NCBI RefSeq assembly: GCF_003945235.1
Contig: NZ_RSDW01000001.1
Coordinates: 5,310,001 to 5,342,000, forward strand
From: Edaphobacter aggregans
Lineage (GTDB): Bacteria; Acidobacteriota; Terriglobia; Terriglobales; Acidobacteriaceae
Length of the DNA: 32,000 bases
Reading direction: 5' to 3'
The first letter of the stretch is position 1, and the number at the start of each line of letters is the position of its first letter. This document shows positions 12,593-31,363 of the stretch, piece after piece. A program made the position numbers and the translations under genes. Below the pieces are notes generated by a model, which had not been told where the DNA came from, made no database searches, and worked only from the letters and a program-made list of their open reading frames with translations.

Positions 12593-13153
12593 CTTGTAAC
12601 CTCACTTCTAAGAGGAAACTGGACGGGCCTTTGTAACTGCTGTCCCGCTTCCTCACTACCAACAGCATAAAAGTGGCTCAGACAAATGTCTGGTCAAATT
12701 GGATCACTTTTTCGGCGCGCTCTACCCCCTATGACGCGAAGGGAGGGCTTTATCGAACTCTTGATGCCTTTGCATTGTGATGTCAAGTATGATGAGATGT
12801 GGCGAAGTCGCGGACTACGCCGTTAGAAGAGCTACGACCCACGTCGTGGCGTACTGCAGTTTCTTGCAGAGCTTTGGACGGGAGGCCGTGGATCTGCCGA
12901 CCTTACGCGCGGGTTGAGATGAAACCTAAGCGGTTTTGTTCGTTTTGGCGGCCGCGACACAGCTAGTTTACCGGCCCTCTTTGCTTTCTCCCTTCGCCGC
13001 GAACTCCTACCTCACCTTGAGTGCAATGGCGTCGGTATCGAACCTTGTAGGGTCGCGGCGGCATCGGAGAGGACGACGGCGGGACTGGTATGAGCCGAAA
13101 ATCGGGTGCTTTGGAGTCGGGCGGCCATAAAATCGGAGGCTGGAGTCATTCAG

Positions 13154-14417: not shown

Positions 14418-15938
14418 CTAGCGCAAGCTTCCTATCGTTGCATTGACTGGGCTGCCGATGGCTTCGCCGGATACGAGAAGTTCTACTCTCCGGTTCTGCT
14501 GCCGGCCGGAGGAGTTATCGTTGGAGGCCACAGGCAAAGTGTTGCCGAAACCCTTTGCGCTGACCGAATTTATCGCCACGCCTTGTTGCACTAGGTAATC
14601 ACGCACCGAACCGGCGCGGTTCTGAGACAGTTTTTGATTCATTTCATCGCTGCCGATATTGTCCGTGTAGCCGCCGACCTCGATGTTGAGTCCAGGATAG
14701 GCGAGCAGAATTCCAGCGACTTTCGCCAGCTTCTCCCTTGCACCTGGCTTCAATGAGTACTTCCCGGTGTCGAACAACACATCGGACATACTGACGATGA
14801 GCCCGCGTGCGCTGTCGCGAGTTTGAAGTATGGCATTCAACTGCTCAGACAATCGCATGCGCATGGCTGTCTTATCGTTTTCCGCTTGCTGTGCAGCTAG
14901 ACGAGATTGGTTGGCATCAGCCTGAGCCGCAGTGACCGCAGCTACTGATGCTGCTTGATTTGCGGCCATGTCGGATTGTGCCTTTGCCGCATCAGACTGA
15001 GCCTGCTCTTTCTGCCTAATCGCGTCATCAGCTTGCCCTTGCGACTTTGCCTGTGCATCCGCTGAAGCCTGGCGTTCGTCGGCTAAACGTTGCTCGTCCA
15101 TTTTCTTAACCGCAATTGCGCGCGCATCTTCGGCAGTCTGCACTGCGTCTCTGGAAGCAGCGATCAGGAGTTTTTTGGGGGAGTGCTTTTCCGTGGCATA
15201 ACCATCCGCACTGTTCATCAACTGAACGGCGTGCTGATAGCTGTCGCTGGCATACTCCTTGGCTCCCTCGGATTGCGCGATTCGTAGTGCATTCCGCGCC
15301 TCGAAGAATTCCAGTGGCAAATTAGCATTCAGAATCACCGGGTCGAACTTGTAGCCGGTGGGAATGTAGCTGCCCCGTTCCATGAGTTCATACTTCGCAT
15401 TAACCGCCTCGGCAGTTCCCTTGGTGTCATCGCGAACGACGTTCTCGAGCACTATTACATTGCTTGGCTGCCGAACAGCATAGTAAGGTTCCGCGGTAAC
15501 AATCAGGGCGAATGCCTGAAGGTCCGTGGTCACGTCCAGTTTGCTGCGCCGGTTCCCGCCTACCAGCACTTCACCCAGGTTCACCGCCCGGCCCTCGGGC
15601 GAAATAGCCCACAGGACGTAAGTGAGATATTCGTTGCCAAACGTTGTGGGCTTCTGCAGGTTGCCAAACTCCACCTCGATCTCGATGGAGCCACGCTTGC
15701 TTTCCACCTTAGCTTGGCCGTTCGCTGAAGGCATAAGGTCGGTGCCTGCGAAATCCAGCTTCGTAGCGCCGCTGCGATGCTGATAGTTGACCGCTTGGAC
15801 CGTGCGACTGATCACGTTCACGTGGTATACAGATGCCGGACTTGTGGATTGGCTGACAATGGTTGTTTGAGGGTTGGTTTGAGCAAATGCACTCAAACTG
15901 AGGGTGATTCCGACTGCTAACGAAAGCGTAGTCTTCAA
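14418..15938 (-). CDS. OmpA-family peptidoglycan-binding protein: N-terminal domain, Ala/Gln-rich coiled coil and OmpA C-terminal domain
   Basis: The tracked ORF extends to 16151, but the best start is TTG 15938 (AAGGAG 5 nt upstream), giving the signal peptide MKTTLSLAVGITLSLSAFAQ. The C-terminus reads ..VLFDTGKYSLKPGAREKL...GYTDNIGSDEMNQKLSQNRAGSVRDYL...NRRVELLVSG. Confidence 0.9.
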   Translation of the reverse strand: MKTTLSLAVGITLSLSAFAQTNPQTTIVSQSTSPASVYHVNVISRTVQAVNYQHRSGATKLDFAGTDLMPSANGQAKVESKRGSIEIEVEFGNLQKPTTFGNEYLTYVLWAISPEGRAVNLGEVLVGGNRRSKLDVTTDLQAFALIVTAEPYYAVRQPSNVIVLENVVRDDTKGTAEAVNAKYELMERGSYIPTGYKFDPVILNANLPLEFFEARNALRIAQSEGAKEYASDSYQHAVQLMNSADGYATEKHSPKKLLIAASRDAVQTAEDARAIAVKKMDEQRLADERQASADAQAKSQGQADDAIRQKEQAQSDAAKAQSDMAANQAASVAAVTAAQADANQSRLAAQQAENDKTAMRMRLSEQLNAILQTRDSARGLIVSMSDVLFDTGKYSLKPGAREKLAKVAGILLAYPGLNIEVGGYTDNIGSDEMNQKLSQNRAGSVRDYLVQQGVAINSVSAKGFGNTLPVASNDNSSGRQQNRRVELLVSGEAIGSPVNATIGSLR

Positions 15939-16009
15939 AGCATCTCCTTGAAGCTGATGTGTGCCGTGATGCGTTATATCGATCTTGACTGGGTTTCTCT
16001 CGTCACCCT

Positions 16010-16201
16010 TCACGTTCCGACGTGGATCCGGGAAAGAGAATGAAATAGCCCAAAAACATTCAGTAGCCACAAAACGACGGCAATGACTACGACGCCATTC
16101 AAAATTGACTTGATGGACTCCTGCATGGGAATGAAGCGGTTCACAAGCCATAGCAAGATTCCTACTACGATCAGCGTAATAACGACCTGGATGAGTGGCA
16201 T
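16010..16201 (-). CDS. Small two-TM membrane protein (pattern of the Thivi_2564 family)
   Basis: 63 aa: MPLIQVVITLIVVGILLWLVNRFIPMQESIKSILNGVVVIAVVLWLLNVFGLF... AAGGAG lies 8 nt upstream of the ATG. It is 71 nt upstream of the OmpA-like start, so probably co-transcribed. Confidence 0.7.
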   Translation of the reverse strand: MPLIQVVITLIVVGILLWLVNRFIPMQESIKSILNGVVVIAVVLWLLNVFGLFHSLSRIHVGT

Positions 16202-16284: not shown

Positions 16285-16998
16285 CTACTTCTTGTCCTGC
16301 CTAGCTTCGGCAATCGTCGCTGCGTGATTCGTTTCCGCAATCGCCTTCATAAAACCCAAGGTCGATTTCGGCGCGGGGACCTTGCCTGACAGGATGGCCT
16401 GGAAGGTCTGATCGCGGCCATAGATCGCCCGCGTGGAGTCGTTGTCTTGCTGAACTACGGCGCCATTCAATGTGATCCCTGCGAACGCACCGCGCGAACG
16501 TGAGTAGGTCAGGATTTCAGTGTTAAGTTTCCAGTCGGTTCCTGCGGACGCATGACGACCCACTGGACCTGCGGCAGCAGACGCATCGCCGCTGATCTGG
16601 AACTTGCTGGAAAGCAGATGTTGGAAACCCTGGTTGTTCATGACCAGCATGACCAAGTCGACGCCTTCCAAGCCGATCTGCAATCCCCAACTGCCTCCTC
16701 CGATGGAGACGAACGCAGGAGAACTCCAGCCCTCGGCCGTGCGGCATGTTGCGATGCCCCGGCCGTGCTCACCGCCGACGACGAAGCCGCCCTTTACCAA
16801 ATGCGGGACTACTACGATGCACTTTGCACCACCCACTACTTCTTCTGGAATTCCTTTGTCCGGGGCATTCATAATGGAATGGAGTACGTCCGAGGACATT
16901 TGCAGGCGCTCAATCGAGTCCTGCTGTCCTGTGGCAGCCCATAGGTTTCCGTTCGCCAGCGTAAATGCGCCGATCAATAGCATGGATGTCATCTTCAT
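16285..16998 (-). CDS. SYLF (YSC84-like / DUF500) lipid-binding domain protein, secreted
   Basis: The start is taken at ATG 16998 (AAGGA upstream), giving the signal peptide MKMTSMLLIGAFTLANGNLWAA. SYLF-type core: ..AKCIVVVPHLVKGGFVVGGEHGRGIATCR...GGGSWGLQIGLEGVDLVMLVMN.. Confidence 0.85.
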   Translation of the reverse strand: MKMTSMLLIGAFTLANGNLWAATGQQDSIERLQMSSDVLHSIMNAPDKGIPEEVVGGAKCIVVVPHLVKGGFVVGGEHGRGIATCRTAEGWSSPAFVSIGGGSWGLQIGLEGVDLVMLVMNNQGFQHLLSSKFQISGDASAAAGPVGRHASAGTDWKLNTEILTYSRSRGAFAGITLNGAVVQQDNDSTRAIYGRDQTFQAILSGKVPAPKSTLGFMKAIAETNHAATIAEARQDKK

Positions 16999-17022
16999 AG
17001 GTTTTCCTTGCAAGGCGGGGAG

Positions 17023-17066
17023 CTAAGAGGGACGGATGTCAGATGGGCTGACTTAGCTCAGAAACC
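17023..17066 (-). promoter_or_regulatory. Conserved upstream block shared with hsp20 (GGTTTCTGAGCTAAGTCAGCCCATCTGA-N8-CCTCTTAG)
   Basis: The reverse strand reads GGTTTCTGAGCTAAGTCAGCCCATCTGACATCCGTCCCTCTTAG and ends 24 nt before the SYLF ATG. It contains the same 18-mer CTAAGTCAGCCCATCTGA as 30804-30821, in the same orientation and at the same ~40-nt distance from the start codon. Confidence 0.5.
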
Positions 17067-17130
17067 ATGAGGGAGCCGATAACAAGGACTCTTCTCCAAA
17101 GTCATTGTTCCAAAGATGGGTGGCAATAAC

Positions 17131-17286: not shown

Positions 17287-18093
17287 TCAGGTGCTTTCCG
17301 CGTTCCAGGCCACGCCCAGAAAAACGGTCATCGTCGAGAACTCCATCCACACCATCAAACCGATCGCGGCGGCCAACCCACCGTAGACAGGACCATACTG
17401 CATCTTCTGAACGTAAATTCCAAACAATAGACTGACGCCCCACCATAGAATCGCAGCCGCAGTTGCTCCCGGCAGAACAGACCTCCAAGTCGTTGGGACC
17501 GGTCGCGCGACGCGATAAATCAGTGCCAGGACGAGCATTGTTAGGATCCCTCCTAAGGCCGGAAGCATCACGCTCCAGAAGCCTAGAATCAAAGGAGAGG
17601 GGCCGAATTCTCGATTTATCCATTGGCGCAATGGCTGGCCAAAGACACTCAGCCCGATAGCCAGGAGCCATGCCACAATGGACACGCAGAACAGAAGCAA
17701 GCCACGAAGCTGCCGACCGAGAAAAGAGTGTTTCTCTCGATCCCCATAAATGAGGTGGATGCCTTCCATAATGAGTTTCATCACCTGCGAACCGACGAGC
17801 AGCGTCCCGACCCAGCCGAAAAGCACCCATGCCCAGGGATTCACTTCCCGGCGCAAGAGGGAATCAGAAACGAGCTGCCAACTTCCCGGGGGTAGAATTC
17901 TCGAAAGCCGGCCAATAAGCTCCCCACCGCTCCTCCCTCTTAGAAGGTTGCTCATGAGGCCGAGCACAACCAGCAGACTCGAGAAAAAAGCCAGGAACAT
18001 ATTGAAAGCCACGGCCTGCGACACCATGCCGCATTGTGGAATGACTCTTGCCAGTGCTCGGAACAATTTCTTCGCAAGAGAGGTTAGCGTCAT
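17287..18093 (-). CDS. YihY/BrkB-family inner-membrane protein
   Basis: 268 aa with about 6 hydrophobic helices. The pattern is typical of YihY: ..SQAVAFNMFLAFFSSLLVVLG...YRVARPVPTTWRSVLPGATAAAILWWGVSLLFGIYV...YGGLAAAIGLMVWMEFS.. Confidence 0.85.
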   Translation of the reverse strand: MTLTSLAKKLFRALARVIPQCGMVSQAVAFNMFLAFFSSLLVVLGLMSNLLRGRSGGELIGRLSRILPPGSWQLVSDSLLRREVNPWAWVLFGWVGTLLVGSQVMKLIMEGIHLIYGDREKHSFLGRQLRGLLLFCVSIVAWLLAIGLSVFGQPLRQWINREFGPSPLILGFWSVMLPALGGILTMLVLALIYRVARPVPTTWRSVLPGATAAAILWWGVSLLFGIYVQKMQYGPVYGGLAAAIGLMVWMEFSTMTVFLGVAWNAEST

Positions 18094-30644: not shown

Positions 30645-30792
30645 AAGGTGTTTTAGGTCGCATTACGCGGCCCCTCAGATGCATCTTCGACCTTGGCAGT
30701 AGCGACACCAATTAGGGCGCAACCGTATCTTGACAACAATAAGTGCACAAGCCTACGGTTAACACCGAGCGAGTCTCTTTCTTACTCTTTCA

Positions 30793-30836
30793 GGTTCACT
30801 GAACTAAGTCAGCCCATCTGAAGTTTTTCCTCTTAG
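30793..30836 (+). promoter_or_regulatory. Conserved upstream block shared with the SYLF gene (GGTTCACTGAACTAAGTCAGCCCATCTGA-N7-CCTCTTAG)
   Basis: The 18-mer CTAAGTCAGCCCATCTGA (30804-30821) is identical to the reverse strand of 17039-17056. The flanking GGTT..CTGA and downstream CCTCTTAG are also shared. The block ends 41 nt before the hsp20 ATG. It contains nested repeats CTGA-N6-TCAG-N5-CTGA and a CCCATCT box. Confidence 0.5.
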
Positions 30837-30855
30837 ACCTACTGCTAAGGAGGAA
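30827..30855 (+). promoter_or_regulatory. SD-sequestering hairpin in the hsp20 leader (candidate RNA thermometer)
   Basis: TTCCTCTTAG (30827-30836) pairs with CTAAG-GAGGAA (30845-55). That gives 10 bp with a single bulged G (30849 or 30850) and the 8-nt loop ACCTACTG. The AAGGAGG Shine-Dalgarno (30847-30853) lies entirely inside the stem, and the ATG is at 30863. Confidence 0.5.
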
Positions 30856-30862
30856 CTGCGTC

Positions 30863-31363
30863 ATGACACTATTGACCGGTTGGGAATCCGTCCGCGAATT
30901 ATCCGCTATGCAAGACCGCATGAACCGCATGAACCGTCTTTTCCGCGAGTCGTATGGGTCCGAAGTGCCGGAAGAGGCGTTGACAACCACCACCCTCGCA
31001 CCGCCAGTGGACATCTACGAAGACGAGCACAACATTATTCTGAAGATCGAAGTCCCGGGCATCGACGAAAAAGAAATTGATGTTCGCATTCAGAACAACA
31101 CCCTCACCGTCCAAGGCGAGCGCAAGATCGAGAAGGAAGAGAAAGAGGAGAACTTCCGCCGCGTCGAGCGGCAATACGGAAGCTTTACTCGCTCGTTCAC
31201 ACTTCCCAGCTCCGTGGATCCGGGGCAAGTGAGCGCCCGCTGTGATAAGGGCGTGCTGAAGATTAGCTTGGCCAAGAAGGTTGAAGCCAAGCCCACGCAG
31301 ATCAAAGTCAATGTTGGCGGCGAGAAGACGCTCGAAGCCGTGACTCCAGGAAAGGCTGCATAA
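30863..31363 (+). CDS. Hsp20/alpha-crystallin small heat-shock protein
   Basis: 166 aa. Alpha-crystallin domain: PPVDIYEDEHNIILKIEVPGIDEKEIDVRIQNNTLTVQGERK...FRRVERQYGSFTRSFTLPSSVD...GVLKISLAK. Confidence 0.92.
   Translation: MTLLTGWESVRELSAMQDRMNRMNRLFRESYGSEVPEEALTTTTLAPPVDIYEDEHNIILKIEVPGIDEKEIDVRIQNNTLTVQGERKIEKEEKEENFRRVERQYGSFTRSFTLPSSVDPGQVSARCDKGVLKISLAKKVEAKPTQIKVNVGGEKTLEAVTPGKAA

Follow-up and report, generated by a model that had tools for sequence, protein, structure and literature searches.

The 32,000-nucleotide (nt) stretch of Edaphobacter aggregans DNA analyzed here (contig NZ_RSDW01000001.1, positions 5,310,001 to 5,342,000; hereafter the window) carries on its forward strand an hsp20 gene at 30863..31363, which encodes a protein of 166 amino acids (Pfam PF00011, HSP20, E = 9e-25). 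The leader of this gene is about 96 nt long and consists, in order, of a hairpin at the 5' terminus (P0), a near-invariant hairpin (P1), a CU tract that ends in CUUAG, a hairpin that contains the Shine-Dalgarno (SD) sequence (P2), and the ATG. A preliminary description of this locus had singled out P2 as a candidate RNA thermometer. The hairpin is real, and it is part of a leader of about 100 bases rather than a stand-alone element. In our reading, P2 is probably the SD-occluding stem of a modular leader of Terriglobia that controls the translation of a set of stress genes.

The left (anti-SD) arm of P2 can be read directly at 30827-30836 (+; TTCCTCTTAG as DNA, UUCCUCUUAG as RNA). It is followed by an 8-nt loop at 30837-30844 (+; ACCTACTG or, as RNA, ACCUACUG), which varies between orthologs, and by a right arm of 11 bases at 30845-30855 (+; CTAAGGAGGAA or, as RNA, CUAAGGAGGAA), in which the SD AAGGAGG spans 30847-30853. 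As read from the window sequence, the arms form 10 pairs with G30849 bulged, and the entire AAGGAGG lies inside the stem. The structure predicted by RNAfold is the very same hairpin (-12.3 kcal/mol), which also forms in the context of the whole leader. Reading and folding thus agree with the preliminary description on a 10-bp bulged-G hairpin that covers the whole hsp20 SD (span 30827-30855). Two of its details need correction, as its right arm, 'CTAAG(G)GAGGAA', has one G in excess and the ATG at 30863 lies 7 nt past the stem rather than 8. In many orthologs, the segment that corresponds to the P2 loop contains a second CU-rich anti-SD. Moreover, in the hsp20 leaders of the cultured strain E. 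aggregans DSM 19364 (L004:2865-3006) and of a second locus (L062:2868-3006), a segment of about 21 nt that comprises the CU tract, CUUAG, and the loop is tandemly duplicated, which provides two anti-SD copies.

A protein-anchored scan with one genome per species provided 80 related hsp20 loci (72-91% identity), including those of Silvibacterium, E. aggregans DSM 19364, Terracidiphilus, and Ca. Sulfotelmatobacter. The leader is present at 74 of these loci (75/81 counting the window). All are labelled Acidobacteriota/Terriglobia, with the exception of one contig from a 'Nitrospira sp.' metagenome-assembled genome (MAG) (L072; DATGEA010000195.1). This contig carries a typical acidobacterial hsp20 (77% identity) with a complete leader and is therefore probably mis-binned. 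The module is absent at six related hsp20 loci (L044, L064, L074, L076, L078, and L079), most of which have a plain A-rich leader. One of these belongs to the MAG MFD01248.bin.1.34, which has three hsp20 paralogs, two with the module (L025 and L040) and one without (L044).

Conservation among the orthologs begins abruptly at TTGACA, with none further upstream. It then runs through TAnnnT, GAGCAAG...CUUACUC, the near-invariant CUGAACUAAGUCAGCCCAUCUGAAG, the CU tract with CUUAG, a variable stretch, AAGGAGG, and the ATG. In the window, the corresponding sigma70-like promoter has its -35 hexamer TTGACA at 30730..30735 (+) and, after an 18-nt spacer, its -10 hexamer TACGGT at 30754..30759 (+). The former is conserved in orthologs and the latter is of the TAnnnT type, mostly TAGCAT in orthologs; a simple promoter scan missed TACGGT because just three of its six bases match. 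TTGAC occupies -71 to -66 relative to CTGAAC in 92 of 94 distinct hsp20 upstream regions, and all 92 sites have TAnnnT 16-19 nt past it. From this conserved arrangement at a fixed position, we infer a transcript start near 30767, about 60 nt 5' of the left arm of P2. The left arm is accordingly very likely transcribed, as the preliminary description had assumed, and a start downstream of 30836, which it had named as fatal to the idea, is at odds with the position of the promoter. The sequence TGTAATTGAG, located between the -10 hexamer and the putative start, is common to the hsp20 leaders and to leaders of other classes that lack a TTGACA -35, so conservation reaches into the discriminator and start region.

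For a transcript that begins at 30767, the predicted minimum free energy (MFE) structure consists of exactly P0, P1, and P2. P0 (30767..30787, +), which is identified by both the MFE structure and covariation, pairs GAGCGAG (30767-73) with CUUACUC (30781-87) around a C.A mismatch. P1 (30788..30823, +) comprises an outer stem (30788-95:30816-23), a 3x3 internal loop, an inner stem of CUGA (30799-802) and UCAG (30809-12), and the hexaloop ACUAAG (30803-08); folded alone, it has an energy of -9.9 kcal/mol (z = -2.4). The CU tract UUUUUCCUCUUAG (30824..30836, +) includes the anti-SD arm (30827-36) and the conserved CUUAG (30832-36). Among 145 distinct leaders of all classes, aligned with MAFFT and not fitted to any structure, all seven pairs of P0 have changes on both sides. 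For example, pair 12:26 is A-U in 70 leaders and G-C in 37, and pair 13:25 is G-C in 65, G.U in 48, and A-U in 12. For P0 and P1 together, 89% of the cells are paired, compared with 33-46% when the partners are slid, and the observed paired cells and double changes are reached in none of 500 shuffles. By this comparison, P0 is shown to be an RNA helix. The C.A mismatch in the middle of P0 (30770/30784; columns 10/28 of alignment A2) is kept in most hsp20 leaders and is replaced by U-A or C-G elsewhere; a protonated A+.C pair at this position would be sensitive to pH, which may be relevant to acidophiles.

The strongest conservation in the leader lies in P1, an upstream hairpin that has no role in SD pairing. 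The 25-mer at 30799-30823 is nearly unchanged in 75 of 81 hsp20 leaders, and among the 89 distinct hsp20 leaders, 66-69 have P1 in their MFE structure. One-sided changes in P1 almost always keep the pair in the main classes (G.U to A-U or G-C, C-G to U.G, U-A to U.G), and the exceptions mostly belong to one subclass in front of SYLF-domain genes, in which the register is shifted. Furthermore, CTTAG is found in 184 of 193 distinct leaders (95%) irrespective of the SD context, and in 166 of these 184 it lies 28-29 nt past CTAAG. As RNA, CUUAG is complementary to the CUAAG of the P1 loop and, in the window, to the CUAAG at 30845-49.

Such invariance raises the question of a DNA-level element, in which the invariant block and the CTAAG...CTTAG repeat would form the operator of a stress repressor or part of a promoter for an alternative sigma factor. 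The extreme invariance without covariation, the fixed distance from the promoter, the tight 28-29-bp spacing of the repeat, the regulon-like distribution, and the resemblance of GCCCATCT to a sigma32 -10 are all in keeping with this explanation. However, the adjacent P0 covaries as RNA, and the frequent G.U pairs make the stem changes compatible with pairing on the gene strand only, which together argue for a module that acts as RNA and not as a DNA site. The two halves of the repeat are also unequally conserved, the nested and offset repeats lack a common dyad center, and the distance to the start codons is kept behind different types of promoters. The possibility that GCCCATCT is a sigma32-type -10, or TGAAC an extracytoplasmic function (ECF) -35, was rejected, as neither has a conserved partner hexamer at a workable spacing (no conserved -35 lies at sigma32 or ECF spacing from GCCCATCT) and TTGACA/TAnnnT lies upstream. 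A DNA-level function is thus very unlikely, and we return to the leader as an RNA that controls translation.

A covariance model of P0-P1-CUUAG (R1), for which the hsp20 copy in the window was part of the seed alignment, scores 78 bits at 30765-30846 and 55 bits at 17098-17014, with no other match of E < 2 in the window. The model also recovers all known copies and a few divergent ones within the loci. The second module (17014..17098, -; E = 4.5e-13) precedes a gene for a SYLF/Ysc84-domain lipoprotein (16285..16998, -; Pfam Ysc84, E = 1e-35; NCBIfam SYLF lipoprotein). Its 25-mer, at 17037-17061 (-), has three mismatches and is followed by CCCTCTTAG (17031-17023) and the ATG of the SYLF gene. 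Both modules lie on the strand of their gene, with the start codon 64 nt past CTGAAC in the case of hsp20 and 63 nt past CTGAGC in the case of the SYLF gene.

Outside the window, an exact-match scan of metagenomes with an 18-mer found the module on at least 120 contigs, which brings the total, together with the earlier loci, to at least 212 copies, including copies in the flanks of hsp20 loci, where they precede other genes. Of the 194 copies with a recognizable start among the matches listed, about 180 have the start codon 61-69 nt past CTGAAC. The genes behind the module, again among the matches listed, encode HSP20, Ysc84/SYLF lipoproteins, DUF2934, DUF892 (YciE/YciF-like), DUF4440, a protein of 105 amino acids, a protein of 67 amino acids, and singletons. 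In a metagenome sample anchored on the motif, just 25 of 126 copies precede hsp20. From general knowledge, we take this gene set to resemble a general-stress set. The 105-amino-acid protein (MFARNVSIHLK...) is the most common product behind the module among the matches listed (for example at L010, L020, L066, and many of L081-L200). Neither Pfam nor NCBIfam has a model for its family, which numbers 4747 database homologs; those listed with a named source are all 'hypothetical protein'. The 67-amino-acid family (MHPNAILHE...) is likewise unannotated, and its genes have no obvious SD. The class-1 protein was tried as a route to divergent homologs and abandoned, as only relatives of at least 82% identity were returned, which are of no use for covariation.

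Predicted occlusion of the SD is kept across the hsp20 leaders. In MFE structures predicted at 25 C, 87 of 89 distinct hsp20 leaders have at least 75% of the G residues in the SD region paired with upstream sequence. The median of the mean unpaired probability of GGAGG is 0.065 in hsp20 leaders, compared with 0.20 in a control set of 66 genes from these loci that have a GGAGG SD but no module (p = 1e-6, for sequences that are related and not independent). The partner of the SD is mostly the CU tract (fraction 0.66), and the window SD has an unpaired probability of about 0.1 at every temperature tried. The widespread part of P2 is the core UUCCUC:GAGGAA plus UU:AA. The extension UUAG:CUAA, which makes up the 10 bp, is found in about 10-12 of the 89 distinct hsp20 leaders, all close relatives of the window sequence, and is thus clade-specific. 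In other classes, different SD-proximal arms follow just past CUUAG, for example CAACC:GGUUG and AAUCC:GGAUU in the 105-amino-acid class and GUUCC:GGAAC in the SYLF class. Given the register shifts, the clade-specific extension, and an energy at the level of shuffled sequences, the SD pairing appears to follow from a conserved CU-rich composition and not from one conserved helix. The preliminary description had made its hairpin depend on compensatory changes in orthologous hsp20 leaders; the predicted pairing itself is retained there, through register shifts and CU-rich composition and not through clean compensation.

That the hairpin arises by chance, in the sense that a strong SD would find a partner in any CU-rich leader and nothing has been selected, accords with a local z of just -1.75 (12/200 shuffles are equally stable), such that the local fold of P2 alone is not beyond chance, and with the low accessibility of the GGAGG control genes noted above. 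This explanation is contradicted by conservation, as about 190 distinct leaders of several families keep both the position and the sequence of the CU tract and of CUUAG, and it is hardly credible.

A second possibility, and the one closest to the preliminary description, is a stand-alone thermometer analogous to ROSE, in which 30827-30855 senses heat by itself, melting at the bulged G, and the leader upstream of it has no part. The gene is indeed hsp20, the SD stem is imperfect, and the ATG is left free. The energy of the hairpin (-9 to -12 kcal/mol) is similar in orthologs (-8.8 +/- 1.6), and an extra G opposite CUCUU recurs, since the left arm is without one C in most leaders. In Pseudomonas, moreover, an SD hairpin is sufficient by itself for thermoregulation (PMC3669281). 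Against these points, the left arm with CUUAG is common to many non-hsp genes, the strongest constraint falls on P1, outside the hairpin, the 10-bp form is restricted to one clade, compensatory covariation is absent, and the stability equals that of composition-preserving shuffles. As its left arm belongs to a module shared with many non-hsp genes, P2 is probably not a gene-specific thermometer, and a stand-alone function is unlikely. What stands of the preliminary description is that the hsp20 SD lies in an imperfect bulged-G hairpin; the gene-specific part of its thermometer proposal is not supported. The use of the module by many non-hsp genes and the weight of constraint on P1 speak against a simple thermometer dedicated to one gene and stay compatible with heat as a signal. 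A thermometer is a plausible candidate role for the hsp20 leader.

P1 is built from UUCAG, CUGAA, UCAG, and CUGAA, which allow two folds, either the long hairpin or two short hairpins (UUCAG:CUGAA and UCAG:CUGA) with CUAAG single-stranded between them. The freed CUAAG could then form a nested helix with CUUAG. This helix is longer in SYLF leaders, where it reaches 8 bp and its two sides vary in step, as GAACUAAG:CUUAGUUC, GAGCUAAG:CUUAGUUC (with a G.U pair), or GAGCUAAG:CUUAGCUC. In the second window copy, GAGCUAAG (17059-52) can pair with CUUAGCUC (17027-20), and its MFE structure holds the 8-bp CUAAG:CUUAG helix, which encloses a UCAG/CUGA hairpin. About half of the SYLF class has the 8-bp helix in the MFE structure, and in this class neither of the two folds is clearly favored by prediction, their probabilities being about equal. 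The CUAAG:CUUAG helix excludes the inner stem of P1 and uses the UUC that otherwise pairs with the GGAA of the SD, such that in the SYLF class a sensor helix, an anti-anti-SD, an anti-SD, and the SD are linked in one chain. As modelled, the invariant P1 and the alternative helix suggest a switch. The invariance of P1 would be explicable by overlapping alternative pairings, and equally well by recognition by a protein or ligand.

Under the SD-occlusion reading, P0 and P1 would fold first as transcription proceeds from about 30767, and the CU tract UUCCUCUUAG would then pair with AAGGAGG and hold back 30S binding; translation would rise when this pairing is lost. P1 would serve as the conserved control element, its strands re-pairing as the two short hairpins and freeing CUAAG, and the pairing of CUAAG with CUUAG would draw the anti-SD region off the SD. 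Among the possible triggers under this reading, a direct action of heat on the RNA has somewhat less than an even chance, a protein or ligand that recognizes P1 comes close behind, and the absence of any switch seems improbable.

Several results weigh against this reading. P1 shows no double changes, and hence no covariation, among the 145 leaders. RNAalifold, applied to hsp20 leaders and class-1 tails, finds P1 only; the SD helix does not emerge as a consensus, since its register shifts between leaders and cannot be aligned, and the SD hairpin lacks clean compensatory changes across orthologs. Shuffling the upstream part gives tails as stable as the real ones (-8.8 +/- 1.6 kcal/mol; mean z = -0.4), so the SD pairing may be a by-product of a CU-rich leader, and occlusion in class-1 leaders is no greater than in the controls. 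On in-silico melting, the SD opens only above 60-70 C, as it does in a fourU sequence, so this calculation does not discriminate. In the hsp20 leader, the CUAAG:CUUAG helix has 5 bp only and a probability of 0.01, and the alternative fold is 11 kcal/mol worse than P1 plus P2, which means that a switch there would need help. A spontaneous bistable switch of P1 was accordingly rejected for the hsp20 leader and kept as a possibility that depends on a factor or on the class. Over all classes, the extension of this helix is not significant (13% vs. 12% in shuffles), its signal coming from SYLF leaders and from few leaders besides, and the A-U to G-C change in the extension may be a single event. 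Finally, the position of the transcript start is deduced from the promoter.

Some of these results would suit a constitutive expression leader, in which P0 and P1 protect the 5' end from decay, the CU tracts recruit 30S or S1, the SD pairing is incidental, and there is no switch. A 5'-terminal hairpin does start at the presumed transcript start, the tracts are pyrimidine-rich, composition explains the SD pairing, and the fixed geometry to the start codon would suit a docking site. However, an invariant block of 25 nt that includes both stems exceeds the needs of a stabilizer, CUUAG is conserved and partly covaries with the loop side of P1, and the association is with stress-type genes only. 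On balance, a constitutive role is doubtful, and occlusion of the SD by a modular leader remains the reading that we prefer.

The leader RNA is, as judged from sequence searches, undescribed and absent from Rfam 15. Over the 32 kb, Rfam 15 gave no match at gathering score and only chance-level matches (E > 2). The Acido-1 and Acido-Lenti-1 motifs (PMC2864571) do not match the leader, and a plasmid collection contains no match to the module. A literature search on the sequence, on thermometers and RNA motifs of Acidobacteria, and on transcript starts found no earlier description of the leader. A tentative extension of our reading is that P0-P1-CUUAG represents a new, Terriglobia-specific class of regulon-wide riboregulator. 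In this class, a bistable P1 would sense temperature, a protein, or a ligand, and class-specific SD hairpins would co-ordinate Hsp20, SYLF, DUF2934, DUF892, and two small-protein families.

Acidobacteria are among the most abundant soil bacteria, and stress-gene regulation in this phylum is scarcely known. The leader, of which about 85 nt are conserved, precedes hsp20 as well as six or more small genes of the stress type that are unrelated to it and thus defines a putative stress regulon by sequence alone. It also ties to a stress regulon two large families of 'hypothetical' proteins, including the one with thousands of homologs and no Pfam domain, and it offers a compact, testable RNA with a near-invariant hairpin and a cultured carrier (E. 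aggregans DSM 19364, locus L004). If temperature sensing is true, the range of RNA thermometers would grow to include a new phylum and an entire regulon instead of single hsp genes, with a bearing on the warming of peat and permafrost, as many of the source MAGs are from such sites. If factor binding is true, the leader would represent a new class of riboregulator.

The octamer CCTCTTAG, part of the anti-SD arm, occurs five times in the window compared with 0.67 expected, a count that was reached in 0 of 100 shuffles. The preliminary description had placed it in two other leaders, and both sites, 17023-17030 and 12608-12615, are real and on the reverse strand. The first lies inside the second full leader copy. 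The second precedes a previously unlisted 27-codon DUF3309-like open reading frame (ORF) at 12592-12509 (-) and not the Crp-like gene. This ORF, METVLIVLVVLFLLGGGGWGFSRWRRG, has a weak match to DUF3309 (E = 2.5e-4), and a homologous small ORF is located just upstream of a module copy in L008. The 12608 site was rejected as a module copy, there being no covariance-model match at this position. The predicted partner of the CU tract in the leader of this ORF is a GAGGAA further upstream, which repeats the GUGAGG of the ORF's own SD, a possible anti-anti-SD arrangement in the model. The two remaining copies, at 17936 (+) and 28217 (-), are in ORF-covered sequence and are taken for chance matches. 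Downstream of the SYLF gene lies a gene of the OmpA family (14418-16151, -); the segment 14001-16000 over this gene has a strong negative AT skew (-0.235), unlike the remaining window. Among the loci, a divergent module copy (L051:2492-2602, -) has the loop UAUAAG and the tail CUUAUA, changed together relative to CUAAG/CUUAG. The downstream gene of the 105-amino-acid family is frameshifted after about 45 codons and the copy may be decaying, so the joint change is weak evidence. A weak model match (18.7 bits) at L198:8646-8743 (-), just past the stop of a gene of the same family, combines a perfect 10-bp P0-like hairpin with CUGA/UCAG around another loop; it lacks CUUAG and could be a relic or a variant of the module.

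Among known systems, the closest in layout are the ROSE-like elements, which have two to four hairpins, an SD that is imperfectly paired in the 3'-proximal one, and the anti-SD motif U(U/C)GCU (PMC3669281). Like ROSE (RF00435 and relatives, of alpha- and gamma-proteobacteria), the present leader is a 5' untranslated region (UTR) of a small-hsp gene in the range of 60-100 nt with an ordinary promoter upstream, occurs in several copies per genome, and has upstream hairpins, whose role in ROSE is uncertain (PMC3669281). The hsp20 ORF (30863-31363) has its promoter about 100 nt upstream, with a putative start, and the predicted MFE structure places the SD in the last of three hairpins. Unlike in ROSE, the anti-SD is UUCCUCUU, the unpaired G is on the SD strand, the phylum differs, the most conserved part is an upstream hairpin, and the module serves many non-hsp genes. 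Neither UUGCU nor UCGCU is found in the anti-SD arm of the window (UUCCUCUUAG) or of any of 71 aligned orthologs. The ROSE models of Rfam have no match with E up to 10 in slices of 126 and 701 nt and none at gathering score in the whole window, which bears out the earlier view that the element is not ROSE itself.

The fourU and cyanobacterial hsp17 thermometers also have a short imperfect hairpin over the SD of a small-hsp gene (PMC2887971, PMC4477652, PMC4152365), and in the hsp17 type a single short hairpin is the whole 5' UTR (PMC4477652). By contrast, the SD here pairs with UUCCUC, only two residues of the U run at 30824-28 are paired (with AA), no Rfam match to fourU is found, and the leader is about 96 nt long (as a presumed UTR), with three helices and a flanking module that is conserved in sequence. 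Lambda cIII and E. coli cspA are mRNA thermosensors with two conformations, in which mutually exclusive folds decide access to the SD. P1 can similarly re-pair and CUAAG can pair with CUUAG, although in this leader the alternative fold rests on sequence logic and one class-specific covariation and is disfavored in hsp20. As in the platforms of translational riboswitches, GAACUAAG (in P1), CUUAGUUCC, and GGAAC of the SYLF class form a chain of exclusive helices; unlike in riboswitches, there is no identifiable ligand pocket, the stems of P1 are invariant, and the genes served point to general stress, not to a metabolite, as the likely signal. Finally, CIRCE (TTAGCACTC-N9-GAGTGCTAA) is a perfect DNA palindrome bound by HrcA. 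The leader resembles it in being one conserved inverted-repeat element between the promoter and start codon of several stress operons, and differs from it in sequence, in a symmetry that is imperfect but compatible with G.U pairing, and in an adjacent helix, P0, that covaries as RNA.

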